Of a stretch of 64,000 nt of DNA, positions 7,393 to 36,114 are shown piece after piece (position 1 is the stretch's first letter; the number at the start of each line of letters is the position of its first letter). A program made the position numbers and the translations under genes. Source of the stretch: an uncultured Gammaproteobacteria bacterium. Its GTDB lineage: Bacteria > Patescibacteriota > Microgenomatia > Daviesbacterales > UBA10151. The stretch covers positions 33,557 to 97,556 of the forward strand of contig CAZYPW010000001.1 of the NCBI GenBank assembly GCA_964649615.1, read 5' to 3'. The notes under the pieces were generated by a model that saw only the letters and a list, made by a program, of their open reading frames with translations, made no database searches and was not told the origin of the DNA.

Positions 7393-9174
7393 TTAAGGCG
7401 ATTTTCTTTTCCACTTAAGAGGATTCCAGGGTGAAGCACTTCGATCTATGAATGTTCCTATACCGGGTTTCGTAGGACCATATTCGAATCCTCCAGTGCC
7501 AGGGTTAAGATAGTATCCCTTCTCTCCAAAAATATTCTGTTTAAACATTCCCCCTTGGCCACGAATAGCACCTGCTCCTTGTTCATAGTATCCTCTACCA
7601 CCCCTGATACCTCCTGATACTTCCTGTCCAATTAATTGTCCTGCCTGGCCCATTTTACCAATAGCGCTGACAATTATATCCGGAATTTTAGGCAATGCCA
7701 TTAAAGCTCCAAAAGCCAGTAAAATCTTAATAAATCCTAAATCTAAACCTCCAAACAAAGGGAAAGCAGTACCCTCTACAATATTAATTTTATCTGCGGC
7801 ATATACCGCTGGGACAAAGCTACTTTCTTCCATCTGGTTTGATTGAGTTACTTTAAGGGGGCCACCATAATCCTGACCCATTAAAAAGGCTACGAAATAA
7901 AATACAGCTAAAACAGCAGGAAATACTAAGATATTAGCAAGCAGCTTCAGCATCCAGCCGGTAGCAATGCTCTGCCTGCCTGGTAAAGCAGCTGCTAAAA
8001 AATGAAAAGGGGCACTAATTGTTAGGAAAATAATTGTTAAATAACTAGCGAGTAAACGCAAAAGCAGTTTTAACATCTGATATATTAGGGCAAAGGTGGC
8101 GATAAAACTTAACATCAATCCTACCCATGTGGTAGGAAAAGTAGCCACTGTTACCCCAGCAACTAGATTTATTAAAGGACTGGCAATCAGCCCATAAGGA
8201 GGAGGGATAGCTCCTGACAAGGGACTGATAAGTTGAGCACTAATAAAACCTGCCAGCAGCCTGATATAAAATTGAGTTTCACCGTTCATTTTCTCTAGGA
8301 TAGCGCCTAAGGCTTTAGAGGCATCATCCCAGGTAATGATATTTAGGAAGGGGCTAAAAATACTCAACATACTCTCAACAGAGATATGTTGTACTAGGTT
8401 TGTTCTTTGGGGATCATCTAGCTCATTTTGAGCAGCAGCAAAGAAATAACCCACAGCATTTGTGCCTATAAAAGCCGTATCTGAGATAGCTGCTGCCATA
8501 AAGTAACTGAATGTGATAAGGATCAGACCAAGTACTAATCCTGGTAATGCAGCCTGTGCTGTGATTACAGTTTGAGGATTAATTCTATTTCTAAACATTA
8601 CCATTAACCCAATAACTACAAAGATAATCACCATAATTAAGTAAGCTATATTTCTTGACACTTCCCAAAGTCTCAATACTGGATCTAAAACCCTAGCTGC
8701 TGATCCTACTACTTGAGCATTAACGGGTTTTACTATGCCAAATCCCTTTCCCACATAAGCTATATAATTGACTGTTCTAACAGGAGGATTGGTATACAAA
8801 GCAGTAATTAAGGAAGTTGTTGAACCTAATACCCCTCCTGATAAATCAACTTGGGATAAAACCGGTACCCCGGAAACATAAGTTAAACAAGGCTGGCCAA
8901 TTACAGATTGGCCAATCCCTAAACAAGAAAAAGTATGAAACATATTATGGATTAAAAGATCAGTGTAGATGGGAGAGGTGGGGGAGATGGTAGATGGTAG
9001 ATGGTAGTTGGTAGTTGGTAGTGGAGAAGCAGAAGGGGTAGATGTCTGAGCATGGATAGGAGTAGCATAAAGCGTAAAAGTTAAAAGGCAAAAGGTAAAA
9101 GTCAAAAATGCAAGTAAAAAGTAAAAAGTTTTTAGAAATTTTGAATTTTGAATTGTAATTTTGACATTTGACAT
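7393..9174 (-). CDS. Polytopic membrane protein; VirB6/TrbL/CedA-like candidate channel component.
   Basis: N-terminal signal peptide, then a ~130-aa exported segment, at least 6 TM helices, and a Gly-rich C-terminal tail. It sits directly adjacent to the tandem pilin-like genes. Confidence 0.4.
   Translation of the reverse strand: MSNVKITIQNSKFLKTFYFLLAFLTFTFCLLTFTLYATPIHAQTSTPSASPLPTTNYHLPSTISPTSPIYTDLLIHNMFHTFSCLGIGQSVIGQPCLTYVSGVPVLSQVDLSGGVLGSTTSLITALYTNPPVRTVNYIAYVGKGFGIVKPVNAQVVGSAARVLDPVLRLWEVSRNIAYLIMVIIFVVIGLMVMFRNRINPQTVITAQAALPGLVLGLILITFSYFMAAAISDTAFIGTNAVGYFFAAAQNELDDPQRTNLVQHISVESMLSIFSPFLNIITWDDASKALGAILEKMNGETQFYIRLLAGFISAQLISPLSGAIPPPYGLIASPLINLVAGVTVATFPTTWVGLMLSFIATFALIYQMLKLLLRLLASYLTIIFLTISAPFHFLAAALPGRQSIATGWMLKLLANILVFPAVLAVFYFVAFLMGQDYGGPLKVTQSNQMEESSFVPAVYAADKINIVEGTAFPLFGGLDLGFIKILLAFGALMALPKIPDIIVSAIGKMGQAGQLIGQEVSGGIRGGRGYYEQGAGAIRGQGGMFKQNIFGEKGYYLNPGTGGFEYGPTKPGIGTFIDRSASPWNPLKWKRKSP
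9089..9163. repeat. Left arm of a ~75-nt inverted repeat; encodes KITIQNSKFLKTFYFLLAFLTF in the 593-aa membrane protein.
   Basis: Its reverse complement is nearly identical to 13915-13990. Confidence 0.85.
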
Positions 9175-9229
9175 TTGAATTTTGACCTTTCTTCCTAAGA
9201 TTAAACCAAAACTTAAATACTTTCAAGTT

Positions 9230-9538
9230 TTAAGGTTTGCACCAATCAGTGCCACCAAAGTTACATAAAATTCCAATATTAAAAGAAGTTACCTCAACTC
9301 CTGTGGCTATTTGTATGAGCTGTAGTATCAGCCACCCTACTGCCATAAAAACTATGCCTAAGAGTGCCCAGGTAATGGTCATTTTGGCAGCTTCCAAGTT
9401 TTTAGGGTCTCCACCTGACCTTAAATATTTATATCCTGCAAAAGTAATCATCACAAACATAGTAATAATCCCCAAGCCTACAATTGAGGAAATGATGCTA
9501 TTTAAAATATCTTGTATTTGTTGTAATCCAGCAGGCAT
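9230..9538 (-). CDS. VirB2/TrbC-like (T4SS-type) pilin paralog.
   Basis: Small two-TM protein with the conserved loop AGYKYLRSGGDPKNLEAAKMTITWALLG, which is shared with its neighbours. Confidence 0.5.
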   Translation of the reverse strand: MPAGLQQIQDILNSIISSIVGLGIITMFVMITFAGYKYLRSGGDPKNLEAAKMTITWALLGIVFMAVGWLILQLIQIATGVEVTSFNIGILCNFGGTDWCKP

Positions 9539-9589
9539 ATATCTAAAGTAACACTATATCAAATACGATGGTATATATAAATTAATTAA

Positions 9590-9964
9590 TTACGGAGCGG
9601 TAGGTATGGTAATCTTTGTTAGGCCACCGCTAAATCCTAAGAATTCAGCTGCCACATTTGCCAAAGCAAAAGCCACTGCCAAAACTGCCAGCCCAATTAG
9701 GGCATTAACTATTTTACTTCTGGCTTTGCCAACAGCTTCTTTATCTCCGCCAGAAGTAATCCAATCAAATGCTCCCCATACCAGATAGATTAATACTAAA
9801 AGTAAGGCCACAGCAAAAGCCAGTTGTATAACATTACCTATAAATACCCCTATATCTTTATAGCCTTGGGTAGGGGCTTGAATATTAAGATCAAAAACAG
9901 CATAAGCACTGGCTGCTGCAATAAAATAAGTTACAGCAGAAGAAACAATGGCTAATTTTTTCAT
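9590..9964 (-). CDS. VirB2/TrbC-like pilin paralog.
   Basis: Signal peptide, then TM, then the motif LVWGAFDWITSGGDKEAVGKARSKIVNALIGL, then a second TM. Confidence 0.55.
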   Translation of the reverse strand: MKKLAIVSSAVTYFIAAASAYAVFDLNIQAPTQGYKDIGVFIGNVIQLAFAVALLLVLIYLVWGAFDWITSGGDKEAVGKARSKIVNALIGLAVLAVAFALANVAAEFLGFSGGLTKITIPTAP

Positions 9965-10017
9965 TACTTATTTAAGTATATCTCTATTAAAAATATCTTG
10001 TCAAGTCCCGGTTAATT

Positions 10018-10455
10018 CTATCTGCAATCTGCTGCTTCTTCACCAGGGAAACAAATTCGTTTACAACTTTTAGAAGATGAATCATATGAGTATCCAGGTG
10101 AACAAGAGTTTGTGGAGAAGAAGCTAAAGCCTGTAAATTTCCCAAAAACTGCAATTATGGCAAAAGCTGCTGCAAATAAAAGTATGCCGATCATGGCATG
10201 GATGATCTTTTGTTGGGCTTGTTGGACTTTTTCCTTTTGCCCTTCAGAAGTAATCCAATCAAATGCTCCCCAAAGGATCATAAAAAGAAAAAATACTGCT
10301 GCTACAGCATAGATCAGCCCTATCAAATTACTGAAAAATTTGCTTATTCCTGTTGCCCCACTTAGATTTCCTTGTGTGAAAGGATCTAATTCTGGTGGCG
10401 GTTTTATGGCACCAAATATATCTTTAAAATCTGCAGCCAGTTTCATATTAGCCAA
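10018..10455 (-). CDS. VirB2/TrbC-like pilin paralog with a Cys-rich C-terminal tail.
   Basis: Carries the motif ILWGAFDWITSEGQKEKVQQAQQKIIHAMIGIL. The C-terminus is ...CSPGYSYDSSSKSCKRICFPGEEAADCR. Confidence 0.55.
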   Translation of the reverse strand: MANMKLAADFKDIFGAIKPPPELDPFTQGNLSGATGISKFFSNLIGLIYAVAAVFFLFMILWGAFDWITSEGQKEKVQQAQQKIIHAMIGILLFAAAFAIIAVFGKFTGFSFFSTNSCSPGYSYDSSSKSCKRICFPGEEAADCR

Positions 10456-10843
10456 TTAATCTTAACCCAGTTATACCAAACAATCTAGCAAGTAAAAATT
10501 GTAAAATCAAAAATGAGAGCATTAACAATATAAAGCCAATTAAAGAATGGATAATCATTTGTTTGGCGCTTTCAATATCTTCTTTATTTGCCCCAGCCTT
10601 CATGTATTTAAAAGCTGCTATTAGAAAATAAATCACCACCAATACTGTAGCTATTGAGAAGATAGCAGGAACCAGCCTTGTTGTCCCCTCGCCTAAAGTG
10701 GTAATATCCCTAAAACCAAAATCTTTACCCAAATCTATTGGATCTGGAGCTTGTGCAGAAGCATAAGGAGTGTAAAGTGTAAAAGTTAAAGTGTAAAGTG
10801 CTATTATAGTTTTTACTTTTAAGTTTTTACTTTTAAGTTTCAT
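10448..10843 (-). CDS. VirB2/TrbC-like pilin paralog.
   Basis: Signal peptide followed by ...LIAAFKYMKAGANKEDIESAKQMIIHSLIGF, with the same two-TM architecture. Confidence 0.5.
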   Translation of the reverse strand: MKLKSKNLKVKTIIALYTLTFTLYTPYASAQAPDPIDLGKDFGFRDITTLGEGTTRLVPAIFSIATVLVVIYFLIAAFKYMKAGANKEDIESAKQMIIHSLIGFILLMLSFLILQFLLARLFGITGLRLIG

Positions 10844-11179
10844 TTAAAATGGTGTTTGCCCCCCTGTTTTGACAAAAATCTCTGTGGCAAACCTGGTGAT
10901 AAAATAAGCCAAAAAGATCACCATTAAGCCTACCAAAGCCCAGGTAATTCTGGACCTGGCTTTGGCTAAATCTTCTTTTTTGCCTCCTGCTAAGATATAT
11001 TGGTATGCTCCCCAGACCAGGTAGAAAAAAGTTAGAAAAAGCATGATATAAATGGTGATATTAACTAAAACAGATACAAAACTGCTAAGATTGATAAATT
11101 CTGGTTTTAAACCAGAAGGAGTAGGGATAGGCTGGGTTTGTCCTGGTAAGGTTAGTGCTAATAAAGATTTAAGATTCAT
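10844..11179 (-). CDS. VirB2/TrbC-like pilin paralog.
   Basis: Carries ...YLVWGAYQYILAGGKKEDLAKARSRITWALVGL. Confidence 0.5.
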   Translation of the reverse strand: MNLKSLLALTLPGQTQPIPTPSGLKPEFINLSSFVSVLVNITIYIMLFLTFFYLVWGAYQYILAGGKKEDLAKARSRITWALVGLMVIFLAYFITRFATEIFVKTGGQTPF

Positions 11180-11234
11180 GATTCAATTATAGCTTAAAGC
11201 TTAGAACGTAAAGTGTAAAGTTACAGTTTAAAAC

Positions 11235-11603
11235 TTAAAGTTTCCTTTTCCCTTTTAAAGTAAGTAAGCTTGCTCCTAAAATATTTGCAAGTTCTTTCGT
11301 TTCTGTTAGTAAAATATTAACTTCGTTTTTATCAGTATTGGTTCCATCTCGTAATATTCCAAGCCAGTACTTAGTTTCATTAGCACTCTTAAGGGCAATA
11401 GCATAAAAATTAATGAAATCTTTCTTGCTTGATGCAGCTTGTGCCTCAATAATATTGGCTCCTATAGAGGTAGCAGCTCTTAATAGCTGATCAGATATTA
11501 CCCAGAAAATTCTTTCATTAGGTAACTTAGTCACAAATTGCACTATCCTAATGGAAAAAGTATATGCCCGGTACTTTAGTTGTTCCTTGTTATTGTTATT
11601 CAC
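11235..11603 (-). CDS. Four-helix-bundle protein (23S rRNA intervening-sequence protein family).
   Basis: YRAYTFSIRIVQFVTKLP...ISDQLLRAATSIGANIIEAQAASSKKDFINFYAIALKSANETKYWL is the characteristic sequence of this family. Confidence 0.7.
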   Translation of the reverse strand: MNNNNKEQLKYRAYTFSIRIVQFVTKLPNERIFWVISDQLLRAATSIGANIIEAQAASSKKDFINFYAIALKSANETKYWLGILRDGTNTDKNEVNILLTETKELANILGASLLTLKGKRKL

Positions 11604-11666
11604 AGATTTAACTTTTTAGTTGTAGTTTTGCGCTTTAAGTTTTACGTTTTACACTTAAATCCCTAT

Positions 11667-12815
11667 TTATTTACAGCTATCAAATCCTGGTATGCACAGT
11701 ATATCAACCCCAATAATTTTTAAAAGTAAGGTAGCAAAGATTACAAACAAAAGCCCAATGATAGCTGAGGTAAACCTATCCCTGCCACCCTCCAATCTCT
11801 CTGGGTTACCAGCAGATGAGATCATCTGAAATGCACCTACAAGCATCAGTAAAAAGGCAAATCCACCAGAGATAGCTACCAGAAATGTTAAAAGATCTTT
11901 GATAAAACTAATCGGGTTGGTGTGGATACAACCAATAGCTGTGGCAATTGCTGGATCTTCATCAGTTCCACACGGTTTTGCTCCTGCTAGGGTACATTTA
12001 CTGGGGTCGGTACAGTGAGGGGTTATAGGTGCGCCAGGAACCACAGGAGCAATAGAGGCAGAAGGGTTTGGTGTAGACGGAGTTGTGGCTGTGGCACTAA
12101 TTTGGATTGGCCAAAAACACTGATGAAGCGGAGCAAGCTTATAAATTCGCAGATTATATTTATACCCAATCTCTCTTGATAAAGTTAAGTTTGTAAAAGC
12201 ACCCTGACCTGTGCTGCCGGTCTCAGTAGAAGCCAAATCAGGATCTCTTCGGCTACTTACATTAAAATCTTGAATTTTATATTCAGTGTTAGCCAATCCT
12301 AAGAATTTGATATCAAACGGAGTATTTGGTTGAATTGTACTTGGGGGTGGAGGAGATAAACCTATTGTACATCCTCCGGTAGCCCCTATCTGGTAGGAAA
12401 TTTGCGAGCAGAAATCTTGATAGTCACCACTTGCATTAGGTTGCCAATACAATTCTCCTGTGAATTTTCCAGCTTCAATAAGAGAGTTTGTTCTAAAACC
12501 CAATTCACTCCCCCTAATAGTTAAAGAAAATTTATTACCTGAAACAGTTACAGATTGTGTATCATAATCTCCAAGATGAGCGTACCACGCACTGAAGTGT
12601 AAACTAACTGATTTACCATTTAAGAGTGCTAACGTAGCTGGATCATTGATTGTAAAATTAAAAGTTAAATCAGTTGTACCTTCTGGAAAATATTTAGGAT
12701 CATAAGTAATGTTAACAGTGGGTGCAGCGCAACTATCTGAAGCTTGCACAACTGGTATGAATGTGTTGAAGAGAGTCAAAAGACCAATAATTCCAAAGAT
12801 AAAAAGTCTGGACAT
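11667..12815 (-). CDS. Secreted 382-aa protein with a large N-terminal extracellular domain and a C-terminal pilin-like two-TM domain; candidate tip or adhesin pilin.
   Basis: Signal peptide. The C-terminal 70 aa (LLMLVGAFQMISSAGNPERLEGGRDRFTSAIIGLLFV) is homologous to the small pilin paralogs. Confidence 0.5.
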   Translation of the reverse strand: MSRLFIFGIIGLLTLFNTFIPVVQASDSCAAPTVNITYDPKYFPEGTTDLTFNFTINDPATLALLNGKSVSLHFSAWYAHLGDYDTQSVTVSGNKFSLTIRGSELGFRTNSLIEAGKFTGELYWQPNASGDYQDFCSQISYQIGATGGCTIGLSPPPPSTIQPNTPFDIKFLGLANTEYKIQDFNVSSRRDPDLASTETGSTGQGAFTNLTLSREIGYKYNLRIYKLAPLHQCFWPIQISATATTPSTPNPSASIAPVVPGAPITPHCTDPSKCTLAGAKPCGTDEDPAIATAIGCIHTNPISFIKDLLTFLVAISGGFAFLLMLVGAFQMISSAGNPERLEGGRDRFTSAIIGLLFVIFATLLLKIIGVDILCIPGFDSCK

Positions 12816-12848
12816 TATCCAAAGCTTAGCATAAGTAGGGCTAAAATG
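12810..12848. repeat. 39-nt direct repeat, copy 1 (GGACATTATCCAAAGCTTAGCATAAGTAGGGCTAAAATG). It overlaps the start codon and 5' region of the 382-aa pilin-domain gene.
   Basis: Matches 13858-13896 with 38 of 39 nt identical. Confidence 0.8.
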
Positions 12849-12897
12849 ATATCCTTCGGCAGGCTCAGGACAGGCAATTTTGAGCTAGGTTTTGGGA

Positions 12898-13587
12898 TTA
12901 GGATTTAGTTTTATGGTTAGGCTTGATTTTTAATAACAGATTGCGCGAAAGATTCTGATAAAATTGTATGAAAGCTTTTTTATCAAAAGCAGCTTTCATT
13001 TTTGGCAGGGTTTGCATTTTATCTGCATCTGCAATTACATTTGCGAAATAAAATTCCGATAAACCAGTATCTTTTTGCTTTGCCAATTGAAAGATTTTAT
13101 TAAATGATAATTCTGTTTGTATACAAATCATATAAAGATCAATATAATCCTTAGGCTCCAGCCGTCCGAAGACTGCAAGTACCTTATTTGTCGCAATATT
13201 AATAAGTGAATCAATCCTGATGCTGTCAATGGTTTGTATCTTGCCAAAATGTTTAGGTTGTTCTTGAACAATGTCGATTTTTTGCATCCAGCCCTCTTTT
13301 TTATTCTCCAGAAAGATCTCATTATATGTTTGAGAACGGATATGAATTGTTAGTTTAGAATTTGTTTGGCTGGCAATTTCCTGCATAGTAGTACGGAGAG
13401 TAAGGGTATCAAACGGCTCCAGGCTAAAAAAATCTAAATCCTGGCTTTCACGGTGAGCGAGATAAAAAGCCGAAAGAGCAGTACCACCTGTCAGGAAAAA
13501 AGGTCTGGCAAATGGTGAGGAAAAGAATTTTAACAAAAGCGTTGTTTGATGTGGGTATAGGATCTGGTTGTTTTGTAACCTATACAT
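12898..13587 (-). CDS. AbiEii-type nucleotidyltransferase toxin (DUF1814).
   Basis: Motif FFLTGGTALSAFYLAHRESQDLDFF. The start is assigned to the MYRLQ ATG at 13587 so that it does not overlap the upstream small gene. Confidence 0.65.
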   Translation of the reverse strand: MYRLQNNQILYPHQTTLLLKFFSSPFARPFFLTGGTALSAFYLAHRESQDLDFFSLEPFDTLTLRTTMQEIASQTNSKLTIHIRSQTYNEIFLENKKEGWMQKIDIVQEQPKHFGKIQTIDSIRIDSLINIATNKVLAVFGRLEPKDYIDLYMICIQTELSFNKIFQLAKQKDTGLSEFYFANVIADADKMQTLPKMKAAFDKKAFIQFYQNLSRNLLLKIKPNHKTKS

Positions 13588-13870
13588 GGTAGCCCCAAAC
13601 ATTAAGCGCCCGTTGCCATGCCCGTTTAATATTGATTGGTAAACGTAATTTTGGGAAGATTTTAACAATATCATTTACTGTAAGATATCTCCATATATCT
13701 TTAAATTGCGCATGGGTTAATATCCGTGCTACCAGCCAGGATTTTTCCGTAGTATTCTTGCTATGTAAAATATTTCGTACTTGTTTTTTATTAAGATCAT
13801 AATCCCAAAGAAAATATAGTTTATTCATGGTTAAATAATACCACAATTTGTCATTTTGGACATTATCCAA
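13580..13870 (-). CDS. Small protein encoded immediately upstream of AbiEii; candidate cognate antitoxin or partner.
   Basis: Operon-like tandem arrangement: its stop is 5 nt upstream of the AbiEii start. No domain recognised. Confidence 0.35.
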   Translation of the reverse strand: MDNVQNDKLWYYLTMNKLYFLWDYDLNKKQVRNILHSKNTTEKSWLVARILTHAQFKDIWRYLTVNDIVKIFPKLRLPINIKRAWQRALNVWGYHV

Positions 13871-13896
13871 AGCTTAGCATGAGTAGGGCTAAAATG
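13858..13896. repeat. 39-nt direct repeat, copy 2.
   Basis: See copy 1. It lies in the divergent region between the 96-aa gene and the SpoIID-like gene. Confidence 0.8.
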
Positions 13897-13903
13897 GTAC
13901 AAT

Positions 13904-15658
13904 TTGGAGACCATGTTTCACTGCAAAATTACAATTCAAAATTCAAAATTTCTAAAAACTTTTTACTTTTTACTTGCATTTTTGACTTTTATTTTTTGCC
14001 TTTTAACTTTGCCTGTCTATGCTGATGAGCTTGAAGATATTAAAAACCAAATTAATGAGCTAAATCATGCCAGGGAATTATCTGTTTCTGCCACCAAGCC
14101 CTTGGAAGGGCAACTGGAGGGCTTACAAAGGCAGCTAGCCCAAATTCAAGCCAGTTTAGACCATATAGCTTTAACTATTGCCCAAAAGCAAAAAGAGCTG
14201 GATTTAAGGGAAGATAAACTAGCCCTGCAGCAAGCCCTTTTAGAAAAAAGAGTTAAAGCCTACTATATCCGCTCATATCTCTCAGATCCACTGGTGGTGA
14301 TTTTATCCTCATTCCAATCAGGAGATTTATTTAGGGAATTGTCTTACCGCCAGACTGTGGCCAGGGAAGATAAACAAGTCATCTCCTCCATTACCAGCCA
14401 GGTGGTGGATTTATTAAATCAAAAAGAAAAATTAGAACAAGATAAAGCTAAACTGGCTTCTTTGCAAGCAGAGGTAGACAAAAATGCGAAGTTTTTGGGA
14501 GGGGAGGTTAAAAAGGCCAAGACTTATCAGGAAGAGCTTTCCTCTAAAATTGCCCAACTTTCTGCCCGCCAGCAACAAATTATCTCTCAAAGGCAAGCCT
14601 CCTTAAACTTGCCTACCTCTTTGGGAGCAGGACCACTCTTTTGTACTGATGATAGAAAGCTGGACCCGGGATTTTCTCCAGCTTTTGCTTTTTTTACTTT
14701 TGGCATTCCTCATCGGGTGGGGATGAATCAATATGGAGCTTTGGGTAGGTCTCAAGCAGGCCAATCTGCAGAGCAGATTTTGCAGGCCTATTTCCAAGAC
14801 TTTTCCTTTGAGCAAAGGCCAAATATCAATATTTCTGTCCAAGGTTTTGGTTCTATGCCTTTGGAAACTTATTTATTAGGCATTTATGAGATGCCAGATT
14901 CCTGGCCAATAGAGGCTTTAAAAGCTCAAGCTATTGCTGCCCGCTCCTATGCCCTTTCCTACACTAACAATGGTTCTAAAGAAATTTGTACTACTCAAGC
15001 CTGCCAGGTTTATAAAGGAGGCAATAAGGGAGGGAATTGGGAAAATGCAGTCAAACAAACTGAGGGTAAAACCATGGTTTCAGGAGGTTCTGCTGTTTCT
15101 GCCTGGTATTCTTCAACTGATGGAGGATATACCTATTCATCTTCAGACGTGGGTTGGAGTTCCCGCTCTTTTACTAAAAGGGTCAGAGATACCAGTGGAG
15201 ATATATCCTCATTTGAGGATCTTTTTAGCAAAAGTTATGATAAAGATTCACCTTGTTTTTATGCAGCCCAAGGTTTTAGGCCTCAATATGCCAAGAGTGC
15301 TTGGTTGAAGAGTGAAGAAGTTTCAGATATTGCTAATGTAATCATGCTTTCCAAAAGAGATAGTTCTGTTTCATCCCATATCTATCAAACAGATAAACCA
15401 AATCCAGAGGGGACTGAGACTTGGAATGAAGATAAAGCCAAACAAGAATTAAGGAATAAAGGGGGTTCACCATTTAACAGTGTTTCAGCAGTTTCTGTGG
15501 GGGTAGATTTTTCCTCAGGACAGGTAACTTCTGTAACTGTGTCTGGAGATAGAGGGCCAGAGACCTTTAACGCTACAGAATTTAGAAACTTTTTTAACCT
15601 TAGGGCTCCAGCTAATATTCAAATTGTAGGACCGTTGTTTAATATAGAAAAAAAATAA
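13904..15658 (+). CDS. Secreted coiled-coil protein with a C-terminal SpoIID/LytB domain (a peptidoglycan lytic-transglycosylase-type hydrolase).
   Basis: Signal peptide, then ~200 aa of heptad-rich sequence. The C-terminal domain reads IEALKAQAIAARSYALSY...CTTQACQVYKGG...AWYSSTDGGYT (SpoIID/LytB signature). Confidence 0.7.
   Translation: METMFHCKITIQNSKFLKTFYFLLAFLTFIFCLLTLPVYADELEDIKNQINELNHARELSVSATKPLEGQLEGLQRQLAQIQASLDHIALTIAQKQKELDLREDKLALQQALLEKRVKAYYIRSYLSDPLVVILSSFQSGDLFRELSYRQTVAREDKQVISSITSQVVDLLNQKEKLEQDKAKLASLQAEVDKNAKFLGGEVKKAKTYQEELSSKIAQLSARQQQIISQRQASLNLPTSLGAGPLFCTDDRKLDPGFSPAFAFFTFGIPHRVGMNQYGALGRSQAGQSAEQILQAYFQDFSFEQRPNINISVQGFGSMPLETYLLGIYEMPDSWPIEALKAQAIAARSYALSYTNNGSKEICTTQACQVYKGGNKGGNWENAVKQTEGKTMVSGGSAVSAWYSSTDGGYTYSSSDVGWSSRSFTKRVRDTSGDISSFEDLFSKSYDKDSPCFYAAQGFRPQYAKSAWLKSEEVSDIANVIMLSKRDSSVSSHIYQTDKPNPEGTETWNEDKAKQELRNKGGSPFNSVSAVSVGVDFSSGQVTSVTVSGDRGPETFNATEFRNFFNLRAPANIQIVGPLFNIEKK
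13915..13990. repeat. Right arm of the inverted repeat; encodes the same signal-peptide residues in the SpoIID-like protein.
   Basis: See the left arm. Confidence 0.85.
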
Positions 15659-15694
15659 AGTTAAAAGTCAAAAGTTAAAACTCAAAAGTGTGGT

Positions 15695-15722
15695 AGTTCT
15701 GCCCTGCAGAACTTTTTAATTT
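15695..15722 (+). terminator. Rho-independent terminator (AGTTCTGC-CCT-GCAGAACT stem followed by TTTTTAATTTT).
   Basis: Perfect 8-bp stem followed by a T-tract, directly after the stop at 15658. Confidence 0.6.
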
Positions 15723-15748
15723 TAAATTGTAATTTTGAGTTTTGCATT

Positions 15749-16339
15749 TTGAGTTTTGAAATCAAAAAGAGTATACTCCTTTTTGCCATGTTTCCTTCTT
15801 ATGTAGAAAATCCAGAGAATTGCTCATTTGAAGGCCAGGATCCCCAAGAAAAAATACTGCTTCTTTTAAGGGCTCATCCAATAACTAATTTAAGCTGGAT
15901 TATTCCCGCGATATTACTCTTTTTCCTGCCTTTTGTGATAGGTTTAGCTTTGAGCTTTTTTTCTATTCCCCCAAATATTATTCCAGAGCCTTTTGGGCTG
16001 GTTTTTTTGCTATTTAATTTTTTACTAATCATGTCCATTGTTTTTGAAGGTTTTTTATATTGGTATTTTAATGTGTATATAGTAACTAATAAAAATATTA
16101 TTGATATAGATTTTCACTCCATTCTTTACAAAAACATTGATGTTGCCCCTCTGCGCAACATAGAAGATACCCAATCCTCTATGATAGGGATACTGCATTC
16201 TATTTTTCACTATGGCCATGTTTATATCCAAACTGCAGGAGCAGCCAGAAATATAGATTTAGTTGATGTGCCCAGACCCCATCATGTGGCTGATTTTATC
16301 TTGGATGAATCACATAAAATTTATGGAAATATCCAGTAG
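15749..16339 (+). CDS. Membrane-anchored bacterial PH-domain protein (bPH_2/DUF304-like).
   Basis: Two TM helices, then a segment matching the YdbS/YdbT-type PH domain pattern (...YIVTNKNIIDIDFHSILYKNID...IQTAGAARNIDLVDV). Confidence 0.5.
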   Translation: MSFEIKKSILLFAMFPSYVENPENCSFEGQDPQEKILLLLRAHPITNLSWIIPAILLFFLPFVIGLALSFFSIPPNIIPEPFGLVFLLFNFLLIMSIVFEGFLYWYFNVYIVTNKNIIDIDFHSILYKNIDVAPLRNIEDTQSSMIGILHSIFHYGHVYIQTAGAARNIDLVDVPRPHHVADFILDESHKIYGNIQ

Positions 16340-19411: not shown

Positions 19412-20146
19412 GTGATTAGTTGCTTTACTATAAACTATGAACTACCAATTATGAACTATCTTCTGGATATTTTATTTCCTAAAAAATGCGTGGGGTGTAA
19501 GAGAACTGGAAGCTATTTTTGCCAGAGTTGCATCAGGAATATTAAACAAGGTGATTTAGTTTGCCCAAGATGTGAGAAATTGTCAGTAGGAGGACAGACT
19601 CATCCGATTTGTAGAAGAAGATATGGTTTAGATGGGCTGTGGAGTTTAGGGATTTACCAGGATTCCTTAAGAGAGGCAATTAAAACCTTAAAGTATAAAG
19701 GAGTAAGAGAATTAGCAGAAAATTTAGTAAATATTACTTTGGAATATTGGGTAAAATATCAACCATTTATCTTAGACCAGATCAAAAAAGATAGAGGAGA
19801 AGGGTGGGTAGTAACTGCAGTTCCTTTGCATTGGTATAGGCAAAATGATAGAGGTTTTAACCAATCTTCTTTAATTTCTCAGATGTTTGCCCAAAAATTA
19901 GGATTAAATTATGCTAAGGCCTTAAAAAGGATTCGTTTTACTAAGTCCCAGGTAAAACTTAAAGGTAAACAAAGAAAAGATAATATTTCCGGTGCGTTTG
20001 CATTATCTACAAACTACCCACTACAAACTACCAACTGCTTACTTATTGATGATGTTTGGACCACAGGTTCTACTATCAAAGAGTGTTGTTATATTTTAAA
20101 AAGAAACGGAGCCAAAAAGGTCTGGGGAATAACTTTGGCTAGATAA
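19412..20146 (+). CDS. comFC: ComF-family competence protein (double zinc ribbon plus phosphoribosyltransferase domain). The true start is probably the MNYLL... ATG at 19451.
   Basis: CVGCKRTGSYFCQSC...CPRCEKL zinc ribbons, and a C-terminal LLIDDVWTTGSTI PRTase motif. Confidence 0.8.
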   Translation: MISCFTINYELPIMNYLLDILFPKKCVGCKRTGSYFCQSCIRNIKQGDLVCPRCEKLSVGGQTHPICRRRYGLDGLWSLGIYQDSLREAIKTLKYKGVRELAENLVNITLEYWVKYQPFILDQIKKDRGEGWVVTAVPLHWYRQNDRGFNQSSLISQMFAQKLGLNYAKALKRIRFTKSQVKLKGKQRKDNISGAFALSTNYPLQTTNCLLIDDVWTTGSTIKECCYILKRNGAKKVWGITLAR

Positions 20147-27985: not shown

Positions 27986-28027
27986 TCTTAGACTCTCTAC
28001 TTAAAGTATCAATTTGAATCTATCTTC

Positions 28028-28354
28028 CTAATCTAAAACTACTTCTTTCTCCCCTTTTATATATTGACGAATTAGTAAACTAATCAAGGTTTGGTAAGGG
28101 ACATTGTTTCTGTATGCTTTTGCTTTTAGTCTTATTAAATCTTTCTTTTTAACCCTTAGGGTGATGCTCCGGCTTTCTTCAAGCTCAGGATAATTCTTTA
28201 CAGCTTCATCAAGCATCTTATTAATTTCTCCAGCATTTTTTGCAGGAACATATTCATCTCTCTCAAGAGCTTCTTCAATCTCCTGCTCGTACTTATCTAA
28301 TACGAGATTTTTAAATGGGTCAAATTTTTTAGTTTTGTTCATATTTGTTTTCAT
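28028..28354 (-). CDS. BrnA-type (CopG-like) antitoxin.
   Basis: ITLRVKKKDLIRLKAKAYRNNVPYQTLISLLIRQY. Confidence 0.6.
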   Translation of the reverse strand: MKTNMNKTKKFDPFKNLVLDKYEQEIEEALERDEYVPAKNAGEINKMLDEAVKNYPELEESRSITLRVKKKDLIRLKAKAYRNNVPYQTLISLLIRQYIKGEKEVVLD

Positions 28355-28623
28355 AAATACTTTCTTGTTAATTTTCTACTCGGATAAACTGTTTTCAAAA
28401 AAACTCTTTTTCTTTTTTTATCTATAATGTACGGTGCAACAAAAGCATATCCTCCGATATTTACAACTAAAAGTCTTTGGCCCCTGCGCCCTTTGCTTTT
28501 ATTTTCAAGATCAGTAAGTTTTTTTCCTTTTTTATAAGCCTGGATTACGTCTTGAAAGCTAACACTTCTGGTTTCTTTAAGAATTAAATCTTTTTCTTTA
28601 GAGAAATCAAATTTATGCTTCAC
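28351..28623 (-). CDS. BrnT-type (DUF497) ribonuclease toxin.
   Basis: FDFSKEKDLILKETRSVSFQDV...RLLVVNIGGYAFVAPYIIDKKRKRVFLKTVYPSRK. It overlaps BrnA by 4 nt. Confidence 0.6.
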   Translation of the reverse strand: MKHKFDFSKEKDLILKETRSVSFQDVIQAYKKGKKLTDLENKSKGRRGQRLLVVNIGGYAFVAPYIIDKKRKRVFLKTVYPSRKLTRKYL

Positions 28624-28662
28624 CTATATATTATACTCTTTGTACATACTTTGTCAATACAT

Positions 28663-28740
28663 AAAATGAAGCTAAGTTCGAATAAGCAAATCTTGCGATC
28701 CTTCGGATCTAAAGAACTATCTGGCTCCCCTGAGTTGGAG
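28663..28740. repeat. attL-like direct repeat: a partial copy of the tRNA-Asn 3' end (GGGGAGCCA) plus ~45 nt of its downstream flank, with a 27-nt hairpin insertion.
   Basis: AAAATGAAGCTAAGTTCGAATAAG...AACTATCTGGCTCCC matches 39003-39042. Confidence 0.7.
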
Positions 28741-28834
28741 CGCTTAGGACTAGCACTATTAGAATCAGAGGATGAATTCGAGCCTATCTTTATTTAATGT
28801 ATATTAACCTGGCTAGTACTTTTTATTTATAGGC

Positions 28835-30319
28835 ATGTTATTGTATTATTTGACAAACATGACAACCCAACTCCCTTTAATAGGCCAAAATTATGAGTCT
28901 GAAAATATTGAGAACAAAACTGTCGCTGAAGGTGAGGTACCACAGGATTTATGGGAACCAATATCTGCATTCAGTAATGCTGATGGTGGCCACATACGGC
29001 TAGGGGTTGATGGTAGTGGAAATAGGATTGGCGTTCCTCAGGAAAAAATCGAAAAACTACAAACGGATGTTATTACCTTATGTAGTTCAGGATTTAATCA
29101 TAGATTATACCCGGATTTAACTGTAGATCAGGATAATGTAATAAATGTGTACATTCCTCCCGCACCTGCTTCACTAAGACCAATATATTCAACTAGTCGA
29201 GGCGTTCCAAGAGGTGGTCGGGTTCGTGTTGGCCCTTCAAATGTTCAACTGGATGATGAATGGTTACGTCGTTTTGCTATTCAGGCTAGTGGTGGAGCAG
29301 AGTTACTAGTGTTCCCTGGAGACTATGAACAACATTTGGACACAAGTGCAATAAACAGATATTTAGAAGCTGTGAGAAAAAAGCGAGGGAACGTATATGT
29401 AAACTTATCTATTCAGGAAATTCTTTTAAAACTTAGGGCTATTACACCCGAAGGCATGGTTACTTTATTTGGCTTACTAGCTTTTAGCACACCGACCGCC
29501 TTACAAGAATTAACAGCCCCAACTGTCAATGTTGCAGTTACACAATATGCGGGCACAAATAAAGTAAATCCTAATGATATTGCGGAGGTTAGCTTAGATG
29601 ATAAAGAGTTTTCTGGAAATGTAGTTTCTCAATTTGAGAACGCTTTAAAATTTATATCATCTAAATTACCTACAAGAAGCAGGATAGATCCAGAAGGAAA
29701 AAGACAAGATTACCTTGCTATTCCCACATTAGCTCTTCGTGAAACTCTAGCTAATGCTCTTGTTCACAGAGATTATACTTCTACTGGAGGCAGGGTTCAG
29801 ATCGATTTATATACAGATCGTATTGAGTTTGCTAATCCGGGGAGAAGCTTAATACCCCTTGAGTTACTTGAGACGGCACATCCCCAGACACGTAATCCCC
29901 TCCTTATGAGCTATCTAAGAGATTTAGATATCACTGAACACAGAGGAAGAGGCATTAGAACCATTAAAACCTCGCTTAAATCAGCAGGGCTTGCAGAGCC
30001 AACATTTATCCATAAGCATGATTGGTTTGTGGCAACAATTTTCAGCTCCGCTTTCATTAAAGACGCTGATCAAATATGGTTACAACAATTCCAAGATCAG
30101 AAGTTAAGCGAACATCAATTAAATGCCCTCGTTCATGTTAAACATAACCCAAGTGGAATCAGCAATTCTGAATACAGAAACCTAAACAATATGACAAACG
30201 TCAGAGACGACATCAGGGCTAAAAAGGAATTAGCTAAGTTAACAAAACTTGGGTTATTCAACAAGGTAGGAGAAAATCGTTATCGTCGATACATACTAAA
30301 CCCAGAATTAACAGAATAA
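28835..30319 (+). CDS. Schlafen/AlbA_2 domain plus HATPase_c_4 (RecG-C-terminal-like) putative DNA-binding regulator.
   Basis: N-terminal WEPISAFSNADGGHIRLGV (AlbA_2). C-terminal ETLANALVHRDYTSTGGRVQIDLYTDRIEFANPG (HATPase_c_4-like). Confidence 0.55.
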   Translation: MLLYYLTNMTTQLPLIGQNYESENIENKTVAEGEVPQDLWEPISAFSNADGGHIRLGVDGSGNRIGVPQEKIEKLQTDVITLCSSGFNHRLYPDLTVDQDNVINVYIPPAPASLRPIYSTSRGVPRGGRVRVGPSNVQLDDEWLRRFAIQASGGAELLVFPGDYEQHLDTSAINRYLEAVRKKRGNVYVNLSIQEILLKLRAITPEGMVTLFGLLAFSTPTALQELTAPTVNVAVTQYAGTNKVNPNDIAEVSLDDKEFSGNVVSQFENALKFISSKLPTRSRIDPEGKRQDYLAIPTLALRETLANALVHRDYTSTGGRVQIDLYTDRIEFANPGRSLIPLELLETAHPQTRNPLLMSYLRDLDITEHRGRGIRTIKTSLKSAGLAEPTFIHKHDWFVATIFSSAFIKDADQIWLQQFQDQKLSEHQLNALVHVKHNPSGISNSEYRNLNNMTNVRDDIRAKKELAKLTKLGLFNKVGENRYRRYILNPELTE

Positions 30320-30425
30320 TTCTATCGACCTTTCTATCGACCCCCTCCTTATATGTGAAGAGCCGCCAAATGCGCTACAACGCCTTTTAGCCTTCTATCG
30401 ACCTTTCTATCGACTTTCTATCGAC
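30320..30425. repeat. Five copies of the 10-mer TTCTATCGAC in direct orientation (iteron-like).
   Basis: Copies at 30320, 30332, 30393, 30405 and 30416. Confidence 0.8.
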
Positions 30426-30555
30426 CATATTAACGAAGTTTAAGTGGTTACGGTTCATTACTCATTGCACACCCCAGAGTGTGGTAGGTAGACACCCTCT
30501 TTACAGCAAAAAGTGTTGTAAAAGTTTAATTTTAAGAGTAATATGATAAAAATCA

Positions 30556-30810
30556 ATGAAAAAATTACTTATTAACTTACTTCTTGGAATCTTTGTTTTC
30601 TCTATCCTTACCCCAATCAGCGTGGAGGCTGCTTCCAGAGTTAAAGGTTATACCAAGAAAAACGGCGCTTATGTTGCGCCCCACTACAGAAGCTCCCCTA
30701 ATAAATCAAAATTTGATAACTTCAGTACCAAAGGTAACTATAATCCATATACTGGTAAAAAGGGTACAGTAAATCCTTATAAATTCACACCCAAAAAATA
30801 CAAACGGTAG
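30556..30810 (+). CDS. Small secreted protein (signal peptide; Lys/Tyr/Pro-rich).
   Basis: MKKLLINLLLGIFVFSILTPISVEAAS signal peptide. Confidence 0.4.
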   Translation: MKKLLINLLLGIFVFSILTPISVEAASRVKGYTKKNGAYVAPHYRSSPNKSKFDNFSTKGNYNPYTGKKGTVNPYKFTPKKYKR

Positions 30811-30884
30811 TTGCTCCCCCGCGTGGATAATACACCCTCTGCTTCGCAGAGCCGAACAGCTAGCTTCTTACGAAGCGGCGCAGA

Positions 30885-32456
30885 TCAAACCACAGTTGAG
30901 GAAAAATTTTGACTTTTTGACGCAAGATCAAACGTCAAAATTTGCTCCCTTTGTAGGGAATTACCCGAATGAATAACAGGCTCATTTTTGGAAGGTTTCT
31001 TCAATATATCTTTCACTTCTGGTGATAGAATGGCATTTACAATCTTGCCTTTTTTAACTAAGAATCTTTCCCAGAATAAACCAAGGTAAAATCTTTTAAG
31101 CACTGGTTCTGCGTCCTCATAAGCCTGTCCTATATCTTGAGCTAGAGCTAATAGGCGTTGCACCACCTTTAATGACCTTTCATGGTTAGCTGTAACTTGA
31201 TTGAGTTGGTTTTTAATGCCTTTCAGATCAGCTTCATAACGAGGGTATATTCTTTGAAAACCTTCTGCGCTTAGAGTTTTGTGAATTAACCAGTTGTCCT
31301 CTGCTTCCCTCATAGCTGCCTCAATCTTTGACTGGCGGTTAATAAGAGTTTGAGATTCATTATCACTATTTTGTCTAAAATCTTCCAGGATATGCTTAGC
31401 TCTTTCTACCAGATCCTTAGCATAAGACTCACTAATTTGGATAGCATGAAACCAATCCTGTACTTCCTTCTCAAGGTCAGCTACTGTAACATAACTGCCC
31501 TTGCTACAGGTCTTACAATAATAATGTTCAAATATAAGACCATTCTTTTTAACATGCTTATCAGCCCAAAGCCTCCTATTACAAATAGCACAAAAGACAA
31601 AACCTCTTAAAAGGTAATTATGAACCCTTTGTCTGGAAGCATTTTGATTATGGGCAGTCATTACCTCTTGGCATAAATTAAAGGTTGCTTCATCTATTAG
31701 TGGGACATGCTCACCTCTATAAATTACCCCCTTCCAAGGCACTTTTCCAATATAAAGTGGGTCTCTAAGACAATACGCTAAAAGGCTGACTCCAACCTGA
31801 CCTCCTGTAGTTGATCTTAGCCCTAGTTCATAAAGGTGGTTTGACAATGCTTGTACAGAAAAGTTGCCAGTAGAATAGAGTTTGAAGGCTTGAGTCAAAT
31901 AAGTTCCTTTATCTGGGTCTACGCCAATAATCCTTTGGTCAAACTTGCTGATAGGTTTTTCGTTGAATACATTGATATAACCAATTTTGGGTTTACCAGG
32001 ATAGTAACCAGCCTTAGCTTTTTCCTCCATCACCTTTGATACTTTTCTGCCTGTAATTTGAGATTGGAAAGCATTAACGCCTGCAAGAATCGTATCAATC
32101 AAATTACCTTCTGCACTATCATCAATCATCAATTGGTTTATTGAGATAAGTTGAGTATTAGCCTTTTTCAAAAGAGCCTTAATAGTAAGATGATCTAGGG
32201 TATCACGGGCTAATCTATCCGTATCTAAAACCAAAATATAGTCTACATCGCCATCCTGAACCCTCCCTAGCATGTCTTTTAGACCAGCTCTGTTCATATT
32301 AGTGGCTGACTTACCTTCATCTTTATAAACCCCTATGATGGTCGTATCGTTATCTTCCGCCCATCTTCTGCATCTGTTTATTTGGGTATCAATAGAAAGA
32401 CCCTCTTCGGCCTGCTCATCAGTGGATACTCGTGAGTAAATTAAGGCTTTTTTCAT
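30885..32456 (-). CDS. Large serine recombinase (resolvase catalytic domain, recombinase domain, zinc ribbon).
   Basis: ALIYSRVSTDEQ...YILVLDTDRLARD catalytic domain. C-terminal CAICNRRLW...HYYCKTC. Confidence 0.85.
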   Translation of the reverse strand: MKKALIYSRVSTDEQAEEGLSIDTQINRCRRWAEDNDTTIIGVYKDEGKSATNMNRAGLKDMLGRVQDGDVDYILVLDTDRLARDTLDHLTIKALLKKANTQLISINQLMIDDSAEGNLIDTILAGVNAFQSQITGRKVSKVMEEKAKAGYYPGKPKIGYINVFNEKPISKFDQRIIGVDPDKGTYLTQAFKLYSTGNFSVQALSNHLYELGLRSTTGGQVGVSLLAYCLRDPLYIGKVPWKGVIYRGEHVPLIDEATFNLCQEVMTAHNQNASRQRVHNYLLRGFVFCAICNRRLWADKHVKKNGLIFEHYYCKTCSKGSYVTVADLEKEVQDWFHAIQISESYAKDLVERAKHILEDFRQNSDNESQTLINRQSKIEAAMREAEDNWLIHKTLSAEGFQRIYPRYEADLKGIKNQLNQVTANHERSLKVVQRLLALAQDIGQAYEDAEPVLKRFYLGLFWERFLVKKGKIVNAILSPEVKDILKKPSKNEPVIHSGNSLQREQILTFDLASKSQNFSSTVV

Positions 32457-32632
32457 ATCCCACCTTTCTTTATAAGATCAAGTAGCTGGTTCTCCTCGTA
32501 TCTGCGGTGCTTTCCGCTGCCGATTCTTATTGCTTTCAATCTACCACTTTTGTCCCAACGCCTAAGGGTTAGAGGTGTTACTCCAAGTAGTTGAGCTGCC
32601 TGTTTAATGTTTAAAAGTTTATAATCAGTCAT
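32453..32632 (-). CDS. Small MerR/excisionase-type HTH protein (59 aa), translationally coupled to the recombinase (ATGA overlap). Not in the ORF track.
   Basis: MTDYKLLNIKQAAQLLGVTPLTLRRWDKSGRLKAIRIGSGKHRRY. Confidence 0.55.
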   Translation of the reverse strand: MTDYKLLNIKQAAQLLGVTPLTLRRWDKSGRLKAIRIGSGKHRRYEENQLLDLIKKGGI

Positions 32633-32891
32633 CTTAATCTACCTTAATCAATATTTATCATTGGTGTCAAGATACCAAAGTATCTAACATCAGAGTATTT
32701 AATGTGTTCAAAATGTGTAGTTTGATTCGTCTCATATTTATTCTTATATATTGTCATTTAAATCTTTAACACCAAGGGCGGATGGCGGTAATAATTTACT
32801 TTGTACAAGTAAGATAGTTGCTAATCTTTTAGCAAAAAGGTCTTTCCTACCATGGTCTGGTGTTTTACCAGAAGTTGCAGCAGGAATCCTC

Positions 32892-34085
32892 TTACTTTTC
32901 ATCTTCGGCAACCCCTTCCGCTTTGTCCTCTACTTCCTGATCTATAAGTATATAGAGCTTTTTATTGCCTTGAACTACATAATCTATCTTCCTTAATTCT
33001 AGAAGCTCTCTTGCGGCGTTTTTGACTGTCGTAGACCCATACTTACCAGTTGGTGTTAATTTTTGGATTATTTCTGTTTGGCTCTGAATACCTGATTCTA
33101 AAAGAGATAAGATATCCTCTTTAGCCTGATCAACTTTTTCTACCTCAGACTCAAGGAAATCTAAAAACTTGAAGCCTGTATCGCCATCTGTAAAAGTGGG
33201 AAATTTAACCAAAAAGGATTCTATCGGCTTATCTGATCTTAAAGCGGCCTGGGTGATTTTGAGTGTTAGATCATCTTTTCTTTCAACGATTAAAAGGCAA
33301 TCTAGCATGGCCAAGATGTCACTTGAGCCTCTTAACTTATCTCCAGCTTCCCTCTTAAAAAATCCTTCCTTTCCATGGTGATGAATGAATATTATGCTGA
33401 CACCCAACTCAAGCAATATCTTAAATCTATATTGAACTTCGGCAATTACCTGTGAGCTATTCTCTTCCCCCTTAAAAATGCGTCTAAAACTGTCAACGAT
33501 GATTACCTTTATATTTTTATCTTGAATAATTTTGATAACTTCATTCATAAATCTATCTGTGTCTAGAAATAATTTGGTATCCGTACAGAAATAAATGGGT
33601 AATGTTTGATTATCAGTAAGTAGTTTAATCCTCTCTTGAATCAGTTTTTGAGGGTCTTCTTTACTGATAAACAAAACTGCGCTTTGTTGAGTTTCAAATT
33701 CATCCAAAAACTTTGCTCCTAATGCTAAACAGATCGCCAAATAGAGTGCCCAGAAACTCTTACCAACTTTTGGTTTTCCAGATATACAGGTAATTCCGTT
33801 GTCTGGTACTAAACGATCAACGATCCATTTATTGGGAGGGAAATCTTTTTGCCTAAGTTCCTCTAGAGAAACTACATCCAGGGTGGGAGTATTATTGGTC
33901 AATGGGTCATTACTATATATACTCTGACTTGTTGACTGGGACGGATCAGCTTCAACAGGTAGCTGGGCAGAACCATTTGTTGAATTAGATGTAGGTTGGT
34001 CTTCTTTCTCCTGCTCTGATAAATAGTGACTTAGTTCGTCAATTTCTTTATTACTAAGTTGTTCCTCATCCATATCAGCCTCCAT
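32892..34085 (-). CDS. AAA_25/RecA-like (RepA/DnaB-like) replication ATPase with an acidic N-terminal region.
   Basis: ISGKPKVGKSFWALYLAICLALG...VIIVDSF...SIIFIHHHGKEG. Confidence 0.6.
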   Translation of the reverse strand: MEADMDEEQLSNKEIDELSHYLSEQEKEDQPTSNSTNGSAQLPVEADPSQSTSQSIYSNDPLTNNTPTLDVVSLEELRQKDFPPNKWIVDRLVPDNGITCISGKPKVGKSFWALYLAICLALGAKFLDEFETQQSAVLFISKEDPQKLIQERIKLLTDNQTLPIYFCTDTKLFLDTDRFMNEVIKIIQDKNIKVIIVDSFRRIFKGEENSSQVIAEVQYRFKILLELGVSIIFIHHHGKEGFFKREAGDKLRGSSDILAMLDCLLIVERKDDLTLKITQAALRSDKPIESFLVKFPTFTDGDTGFKFLDFLESEVEKVDQAKEDILSLLESGIQSQTEIIQKLTPTGKYGSTTVKNAARELLELRKIDYVVQGNKKLYILIDQEVEDKAEGVAEDEK

Positions 34086-34317: not shown

Positions 34318-34419
34318 GATCTAATTTTCGATCTTTTAGAGGGGGATGAATATGGAATAATTTTAGATTTTGAGGCTAATTTATAAGCAAAAAGGGGATA
34401 TTAGGGGAAAAGATAATTC

Positions 34420-35994: not shown

Positions 35995-36114
35995 CTACCT
36001 GCCAGTTTATTCTCTGCTAGATTATCTTGATAATATACTCTAAGTCATTCAAAAAGCAAGATATATCTAGTAAAGATTTCTCTAGCAATCTACTAAGTTA
36101 GTAGGTGGATTGCT

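Follow-up and report, generated by a model that had tools for sequence, protein, structure and literature searches.

The question raised by this locus is whether a near-identical inverted repeat that brackets an array of pilin genes acts as a recombinational switch or has another origin. The repeat lies in a 64,000-nucleotide (nt) stretch of contig CAZYPW010000001.1 (hereafter the window), whose homologues point to Candidatus Daviesbacteria (Microgenomates, candidate phyla radiation, CPR). Its arms are located in the 5' ends of two unrelated, divergently oriented genes. One encodes a 593-residue polytopic membrane protein ('VirB6-like'; 7393-9174, minus strand), the last gene downstream of the pilin array and conserved across Daviesbacteria. 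The other encodes a SpoIID/LytB-domain protein (13913-15658, plus strand), which is divergent from the array and has a Sec-type leader followed by a coiled-coil N-terminal part. A preliminary description had preferred to see a shufflon or phase-variation architecture here, with the scar of a recent duplication as its fallback. The data presented below point, on balance, to a different answer: the arms appear to be two resident copies of one family of leader-encoding DNA that were recently homogenised, non-reciprocally, in this genome.

A repeat search of positions 8500-14500 identified two arms of 100 nt, 93% complementary and separated by a spacer of 4760 nt: copy A at 9064-9163 (minus strand), in the leader of the membrane protein, and copy B at 13924-14023 (plus strand), in the leader of the SpoIID/LytB-like protein. 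Blastn within the window delimited a core of 87 nt with 97.7% identity (9077-9163 and 13924-14010; E = 4e-41). In this core 85 of the 87 nt are identical, one codon accounts for both mismatches (ACC versus ATT, Thr versus Ile) and all synonymous sites are the same in the two arms. Alignment of the gene-sense strands indicated that identity ends abruptly on either side of the core, the flanks being unalignable, and the composition profile displayed no discontinuity at the arms. The repeat is far beyond chance; the near-identical stretch first described as 75 nt at about 95% is real and larger than reported. No further full copy was found by blastn within the 64-kb window. One diverged, collinear copy lies at 15649-15765, where two short blastn matches were detected (15657-15737), and the remaining inverted pairs in 8500-14500 (20-41 nt, 70-85%) resemble low-complexity heptamer matches.

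The repeat is read in frame in both flanking genes, giving the common peptide KITIQNSKFLKTFYFLLAFLTF(T/I)FCLLT. The left gene product starts with MSNV-KITIQNSKFLKTFYFLLAFLTFTFCLLT-FTLYATPIHA/QTS and the right one with MFHC-KITIQNSKFLKTFYFLLAFLTFIFCLLT-LPVYA/DEL, the slash marking the cleavage position; the arms encode leader residues 5-37 in each gene and the near-identical core residues 5-33. By inspection, both leaders display the features of a Sec-type signal peptide (K..K..K, about 22 hydrophobic residues, and IHA/Q or VYA/D), and their cleavage positions line up with those of the orthologues (AxA/QT and xxA/DEIEDL). The Shine-Dalgarno-like sequence and the first four codons are separate for the two genes; they lie within the bracketed segment and are not part of the identical tract. 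Both start codons lie between the arms, as had been described (ATG at 9174 and ATG at 13913), but the right-hand start had been placed at TTG 13904, probably wrongly, since public record P0121 (581 residues, 100% identical) begins at the ATG. The geometry drawn from this arrangement also holds: a crossover between the arms would turn the 4.76-kb pilin segment around, and each flanking gene would receive the upstream region, ribosome-binding site and first four codons of the other. A promoter consensus scan returned 21 sites against 20.6 expected from shuffles and was uninformative.

Tandem Repeats Finder (TRF) resolved each arm into a (CAAAATT)n array followed by an (ACTTTTN)n array. The left arm was reported as (TAAAAGT)8.1 at 9075-9130 and (AATTTTG)7.1 at 9137-9185, the right arm as (CAAAATT)4 at 13924-13950 and (AACTTTT)7.9 at 13957-14010. 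The A-rich array encodes the Lys/Asn/Gln-rich n-region of the leader and the T-rich array its Phe/Leu/Thr-rich hydrophobic core. We compared this structure with 46 related loci (L handles below) retrieved with a profile of the VirB6-like protein and several more obtained by exact look-up. Both arms, the 5' ends of the VirB6-like gene and of a pilin gene in L004, and the non-coding segment 15649-15765 belong to one collinear family of about 110-140 nt. A nhmmer profile built from five module copies and run on about 0.9 Mb (the window and the loci) matched mostly the exact 5' ends of open reading frames (ORFs), in sense orientation and 0-20 nt from the ORF start, in at least 8 genomes. These matches lie at VirB6-like genes in the window, L004, L019, L013, L032 and L009, at pilin genes in L004, L035, L012 (twice), L018, L011 and L038, and at the SpoIID gene of the window. 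Module-type leaders are also found in the SpoIID orthologues P0204 (L051), P0167 (L052), P0177 (L053) and P0127. The peptides that they encode are long leaders of typical Sec type (for example MQIQNSKFKTFNFLIALLTFNFLLLTLPSPVYA); the 43-residue leader used alone as a database query retrieved no candidates. Collectively, these data indicate that, in Daviesbacteria, several proteins of the type IV secretion system (T4SS)-like cluster obtain their Sec-type signal peptide from the module, namely pilins, VirB6-like proteins and SpoIID/LytB proteins.

The same profile also matched intergenic sites, at 15649-15765 and 62582-62695 in the window and in L014, L024, L029, L011 and L027. Both non-coding elements of the window are bipartite, a T-rich array coming after an A-rich one. 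The first (copy C, minus strand, 89.8 bits by nhmmer) is a diverged module located just 3' of the SpoIID-like gene, with a central G+C-rich stem followed by a T-run, a terminator-like hairpin with a fold z-score of -4.1. Because copy C folds strongly and is collinear with the leader module, the same DNA family occurs both as a terminator-like hairpin and as signal-peptide coding sequence. For the arms themselves, a hairpin in RNA or DNA formed by pairing of the A-rich with the T-rich array, acting as an attenuator or terminator, was considered and rejected: their z-scores were -1.6 and +1.2, and RNAalifold predicted 0 pairs over 15 family members.

Heptanucleotide repetition is widespread in the window, where period 7 is the commonest tandem-repeat period (27 of 66 TRF rows, with a further 10 of 66 at period 14). 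Arrays occur within and between genes, for instance at 8985-9021, 10769-10840, 11187-11240, 11614-11652 and 20007-20036, the first of which, (ACCATCT)5.3, encodes the LPTTNYHLPSTISP stretch of the VirB6-like protein. Slipped-strand phase variation in such arrays was considered too, but hypermutable frameshifting is not indicated: those of the arms are imperfect (64-81% matches), and the peptide motif encoded at 8985-9021 is, by inspection, conserved in orthologues. Other Daviesbacteria have a second heptamer leader motif, (ATACCCT)n, encoding IPYTLYP and common to SpoIID-like, pilin and sometimes VirB6-like genes. It was found at SpoIID 5' ends in L008, L013, L015, L019, L021, L022 and L040, at pilin 5' ends in L013, L015 and L019, and in the N-terminal region of VirB6-like proteins in L012 and L021. 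The heptamer family that serves this set of proteins thus varies from genome to genome.

Comparison with the related loci indicated that both module copies are native to their genes. The VirB6-like leader DNA aligns with the L004 and L053 orthologues and is 78.6% identical to that of L004, against 61% for the mature part. The SpoIID leader DNA is collinear with the L052 leader and 87% identical to that of L051, against 70% for the mature part (p = 3e-4); the only part missing from the L051 leader is the 36-nt A-rich half. The sequences outside the repeat are native as well. On the left, the start MSNVK of the VirB6-like protein matches P0002; on the right, the SpoIID upstream sequence and the ATGTTTC start match L051; and the divergent intergenic motif of the window matches L001 and L007. 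Each 5' flank thus agrees with that of its orthologues, which gives no hint that the segment has inverted an odd number of times in the past. In all 34 distinct loci with both flanking genes the orientation is as in the window, with SpoIID on the strand opposite to the VirB6-like gene and all pilin matches co-directional with the latter; an inverted gene order was found in none of these 34 Daviesbacteria loci.

Nucleotide similarity between the VirB6-like and SpoIID leaders was not detected in any of about 30 related loci holding both genes, and many orthologues have ordinary, unrelated signal peptides. Comparison of orthologous loci had been proposed as a check on the inversion idea, and it revealed no inverted arrangement; nor does the near-identity of the two leaders look like simple conservation of an ancestral peptide. 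Leader sharing between other gene pairs was observed in four loci: between the VirB6-like gene and a pilin gene in L004 (direct, 38 nt at 97%), and between SpoIID and a pilin gene, always inverted, in L019 (41 nt at 98%), L015 (76 nt at 80%) and L053 (81 nt at 89%). Leader sharing is therefore a general, sporadic property of the cluster; its orientation follows that of the genes, and it occurs without accompanying inversion in the sampled genomes.

These observations fit a history in which the VirB6-like and SpoIID-like copies of the module would already have been similar in this genome, and a recent non-reciprocal event, either ectopic gene conversion or template switching, would have brought them to near-identity over 87 nt. 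Module leaders in the orthologues of L004, L051 and L052 indicate that both copies are old residents and were similar beforehand. The identity of 97.7%, synonymous sites included, together with the absence of this pairing from about 30 genomes, points to recent homogenisation, and the complete agreement at synonymous sites argues for a recent event rather than conservation of the peptide. Three features of a gene-conversion tract are present: near-identity with abrupt borders, orthologues devoid of paralogous identity, and pre-existing homology. The fallback of the preliminary description comes close to this reading in that it supposed recent copying. The inverted arrangement around the pilin array would be a by-product of flanking genes that are always divergent, and not a switch. 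Neither gene lost its own start codon or ribosome-binding site, and neither protein its cleavage region, so that the exchange would probably have been close to neutral, and the arms may still serve as a substrate for rare homologous inversion.

Several points weigh against homogenisation as set out here. The conversion event is read from the pattern of identity alone, and the searched collections hold a single assembly of the source organism; exact-protein look-ups of both flanking genes and exact 35-mer scans of genome_contigs and metagenome_contigs gave no match. The nearest other homologues are 62-64% identical for the VirB6-like protein and 84% for the SpoIID-like protein, and at such distances (62% and 84%) the event cannot be dated or bracketed. 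The direction of transfer is ambiguous: the L051 SpoIID leader lacks the A-rich half, which therefore looks VirB6-derived, but in both arms the T-rich half is about 92% identical to the L051 SpoIID copy (hand count), as close as to anything else. A simple scheme with the VirB6-like gene as donor and the SpoIID-like gene as naive recipient is weakened by the module-type leaders of the SpoIID orthologues. Finally, in two comparisons leader DNA is more conserved than the mature region, which hints at constraint or function beyond plain neutral conversion.

This last point bears on an account in which the common leader is functionally maintained, the module being a specialised signal of the pilus cluster (for targeting, processing or control at the mRNA level) and conversion only the means by which selection keeps the copies identical. 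Besides the two orthologue comparisons, its presence, in many genomes, in three protein families of the cluster that are unrelated to one another speaks for such a role, as does the sharing of a different heptamer motif, IPYTLYP, by SpoIID and pilin genes elsewhere. We nevertheless consider it rather unlikely: the many orthologues with ordinary signal peptides show that the module is dispensable, the folding analyses of the arms and of 15 copies supported no RNA structure, and selection on the peptide would not by itself yield identical synonymous sites. An artefact of assembly, by a chimeric join or a collapsed repeat, has to be weighed because the source is a single contig of a metagenome-assembled genome (P0001 and P0121 each lie on one 151-kb contig). 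It is extremely improbable, given that both ORFs are intact and in frame, that the copies differ at defined positions, that all four flanks are orthologous to relatives in the expected order, and that typical read pairs exceed the length of the repeat, which lies inside the contig.

Inversion was considered in three forms. Inverted repeats of this size can undergo homologous recombination in bacteria, and the 4.76-kb segment might occasionally flip by RecA-dependent exchange between the 87-100 nt arms, giving a minority isomer in the population in which the pilin operon would end with the SpoIID-like gene, and the SpoIID upstream region would precede the VirB6-like gene. The inverted placement of 87 nt at 97.7% identity 4.76 kb apart would permit this, a crossover within the arms would leave both reading frames intact, and heteroduplex repair during such exchanges would account for the homogenisation too. 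The identical orientation of 34 out of 34 loci, even those with inverted leader repeats of 41-81 nt of their own, and an assembly that continues across both arms with the conserved orientation and native 5' flanks make such an isomer unlikely. A stronger version, in which the modules would be active recombination or regulatory cassettes and low-frequency homologous flipping of the 4.8-kb pilin segment would toggle the envelope gene at the operon tail (VirB6-like channel protein or SpoIID-like cell-wall enzyme) while keeping the leaders identical, appears distinctly improbable.

A programmed, site-specific switch of the shufflon, inverton or expression-site type, altering which flanking gene is coupled to the pilin operon, is very improbable, and the architecture preferred in the preliminary description found no positive support. 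An inverted repeat that occupies the 5' coding parts of divergently oriented surface or envelope genes does recall Ureaplasma mba/UU172 and Mycoplasma pulmonis vsa (PMC3047005), and recombinases are encoded in the window. Pfam and NCBIfam scans of window ORFs of at least 100 residues that do not overlap a longer ORF identified a Ccr/XisF-like large serine recombinase (30885-32456) and a Xer-like tyrosine recombinase (49642-50505). The adjacent invertase that had been suggested as a check was not among them: these two genes lie 17 and 36 kb from the arms and look like an integrative-element recombinase and a housekeeping Xer, and no small serine invertase or Fim-type recombinase was found within 17 kb of the arms. 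Moreover, there is a single long repeat pair with no short core sites, the pairing is absent from all relatives, and the orientation of the relatives is invariant. Both partner genes are complete, so that flipping would exchange upstream regions only and provide no on/off switching.

Within a region at about 28000-36000 (28835-30319, 30885-32456 and 32892-34085), the serine recombinase lies near genes for an AAA_25 RepA/DnaB-like ATPase, a Schlafen/AlbA_2 protein and a CopG-like protein, and the region is probably an integrated mobile element.

The two flanking proteins differ in how firmly they can be named. The SpoIID-like label given initially is borne out by PF08486 (E = 4e-20, 72.6 bits, cut-off 23) and TIGR02669 (5e-40, 138 bits, cut-off 83.3). 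The VirB6-like label did not find support at the sequence level, the 593-residue protein having no Pfam, NCBIfam or PDB-sequence match. An AlphaFold2 model made from 41 homologues (mean predicted local distance difference test score 67) had R388 TrwI/VirB6 chains as its top Foldseek matches in the PDB, at non-significant values (E 0.5-0.9, probability at most 0.30, TM-score at most 0.28). A VirB6 identity is plausible from context.

The minus strand of the segment between the arms carries, according to Pfam, six T4SS_pilin (PF18895) genes together with one 23S_rRNA_IVP and one AbiEii gene. The VirB2-like pilin genes occupy 9230-12815 (9230-9538, 9590-9964, 10018-10455, 10448-10843, 10844-11179 and 11667-12815). 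The array is interrupted at 11235-11603 by the 23S_rRNA_IVP gene, whose product is a four-helix-bundle, bAvd-like protein and which is bordered by oppositely oriented heptamer arrays (11187-11240 and 11614-11652). An IVP gene is also present inside the pilin array, beside the first and largest pilin gene, in L001, L004 and L052, and tblastn gave an IVP match within the array in L009, L011 and L017. The AbiEii toxin gene (12898-13674) and an overlapping small upstream ORF (to 13870), together spanning 12898-13870, follow on the other side of the array. The cassette (12852-13833) is enclosed by a direct repeat, D3, whose copies share 66 nt at 82% with a core of 43 nt at 95%. The first copy (12786-12851) comprises the ancestral divergent intergenic region and the first 10 codons of the 382-residue pilin gene; the second (13834-13899) lies directly upstream of the SpoIID-like gene and holds a decayed pilin start. 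As D3 corresponds to the pilin/SpoIID divergent intergenic region, pilin start codon included, which is conserved in L001 and L007, the AbiEii cassette was inserted there, the promoter region being duplicated in the process. In relatives, the same position is taken by other small cassettes (DUF433, HicAB, ParE/PIN). At the left edge of the insertion lies a G+C-rich stretch (12852-12897, TCCTTCGGCAGGCTCAGGACAGGC...), whose GCWCAGGACARGC motif occurs once each in L022 and L028; the stretch may be a small dispersed element of these genomes.

Arrays of VirB2-like pilin genes are known in Patescibacteria, with 2-11 PF18895/VirB2-like genes and a particular abundance in Microgenomatia, where VirB6 homologues are scarce (PMC12102498). 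The bracketed segment is one such array. The terms 'signal peptide', 'SpoIID' and 'inversion' do not occur in that study (term search), so that shared leaders, the flanking SpoIID-like gene and the 593-residue protein are apparently not described there. In 34 out of 34 Daviesbacteria loci holding both genes, the SpoIID/LytB protein and the 593-residue protein flank a VirB2-like pilin array. The former may be a cell-wall-remodelling partner of the pilin system, analogous to VirB1, and the latter may be the 'missing' VirB6 of Microgenomatia.

A switch here would represent the first invertible element to be reported from a pilus locus of CPR/Patescibacteria, but the evidence points otherwise. What is solid is that signal peptides of the T4SS-like cluster are encoded by heptanucleotide arrays forming a recognisable DNA module, and that this module is common to unrelated proteins (pilins, the polytopic VirB6-like protein and the SpoIID/LytB enzyme) and is occasionally homogenised between neighbouring genes. 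Sharing of the module accounts for one class of the conspicuous repeats, inverted or direct, that these genomes contain and cautions against calling them invertons. It also marks the SpoIID-like protein and the 593-residue membrane protein as constant companions of the pilin array.

Known inversion systems resemble the locus in part. In the R64 shufflon, 19-bp sfx sites delimit several invertible segments, the Rci recombinase is encoded by the rci gene next to them, and inversion swaps the C-terminal ends of one adhesin. The present locus is likewise pilus-associated, with inverted repeats near pilin-type genes, but it has one long repeat pair, its nearest tyrosine recombinase is 36 kb away, and its arms lie in the N-terminal leaders of two non-pilin genes. 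Nor does it have the short repeats and nearby invertase of fim- and hin-type invertons, its arms being 87-100 nt long and 4.76 kb apart. The sap inversion of Campylobacter fetus proceeds by RecA-dependent exchange between the conserved 5' regions of opposed sapA homologues, which share about 600 bp and a single promoter, and produces antigenic switching. There too, conserved 5' coding regions form the inverted repeats, a multi-kb segment containing the transcription start or starts is involved, and recombination is homologous rather than site-specific; in contrast to the sap paralogues, the genes here are unrelated, share only 87-100 nt and each have an upstream region of their own.

The nearest mechanistic analogue of the inversion idea is found in Mollicutes, where expression-site inversions (Ureaplasma mba/UU376 and UU172/UU171, M. 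pulmonis vsa) likewise use inverted repeats in or beside the 5' coding region (signal peptide and anchor) of opposed surface-protein genes (PMC3047005). In the Ureaplasma mba/UU172 and M. pulmonis vsa systems a cassette made of promoter and 5' signal-peptide sequence is moved between opposed genes; the repeats of the Mollicutes systems are short (about 12-36 nt) and site-specific, the recombinases are Xer-like, one partner needs the 5' cassette to be expressed, and each of the two orientations has been shown to occur (PMC3047005). The present locus differs in having two complete genes, a long repeat, no recombinase close by and an orientation that is fixed in 34 relatives. There is also no single 5' cassette serving silent alternative gene bodies, as each gene has its own start, Shine-Dalgarno-like sequence and leader.

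Non-allelic (ectopic) gene conversion between dispersed inverted repeats occurs in bacteria, the concerted evolution of tufA and tufB being an example. The partner genes studied here differ from tufA and tufB in being unrelated, and what they share is an 87-nt segment of a heptamer-array leader instead of a whole paralogous gene. The two cases have in common a sharp-edged near-identity that includes synonymous sites, an inverted placement of the two loci, an unchanged gene order, and inversion as a possible but rarer outcome.

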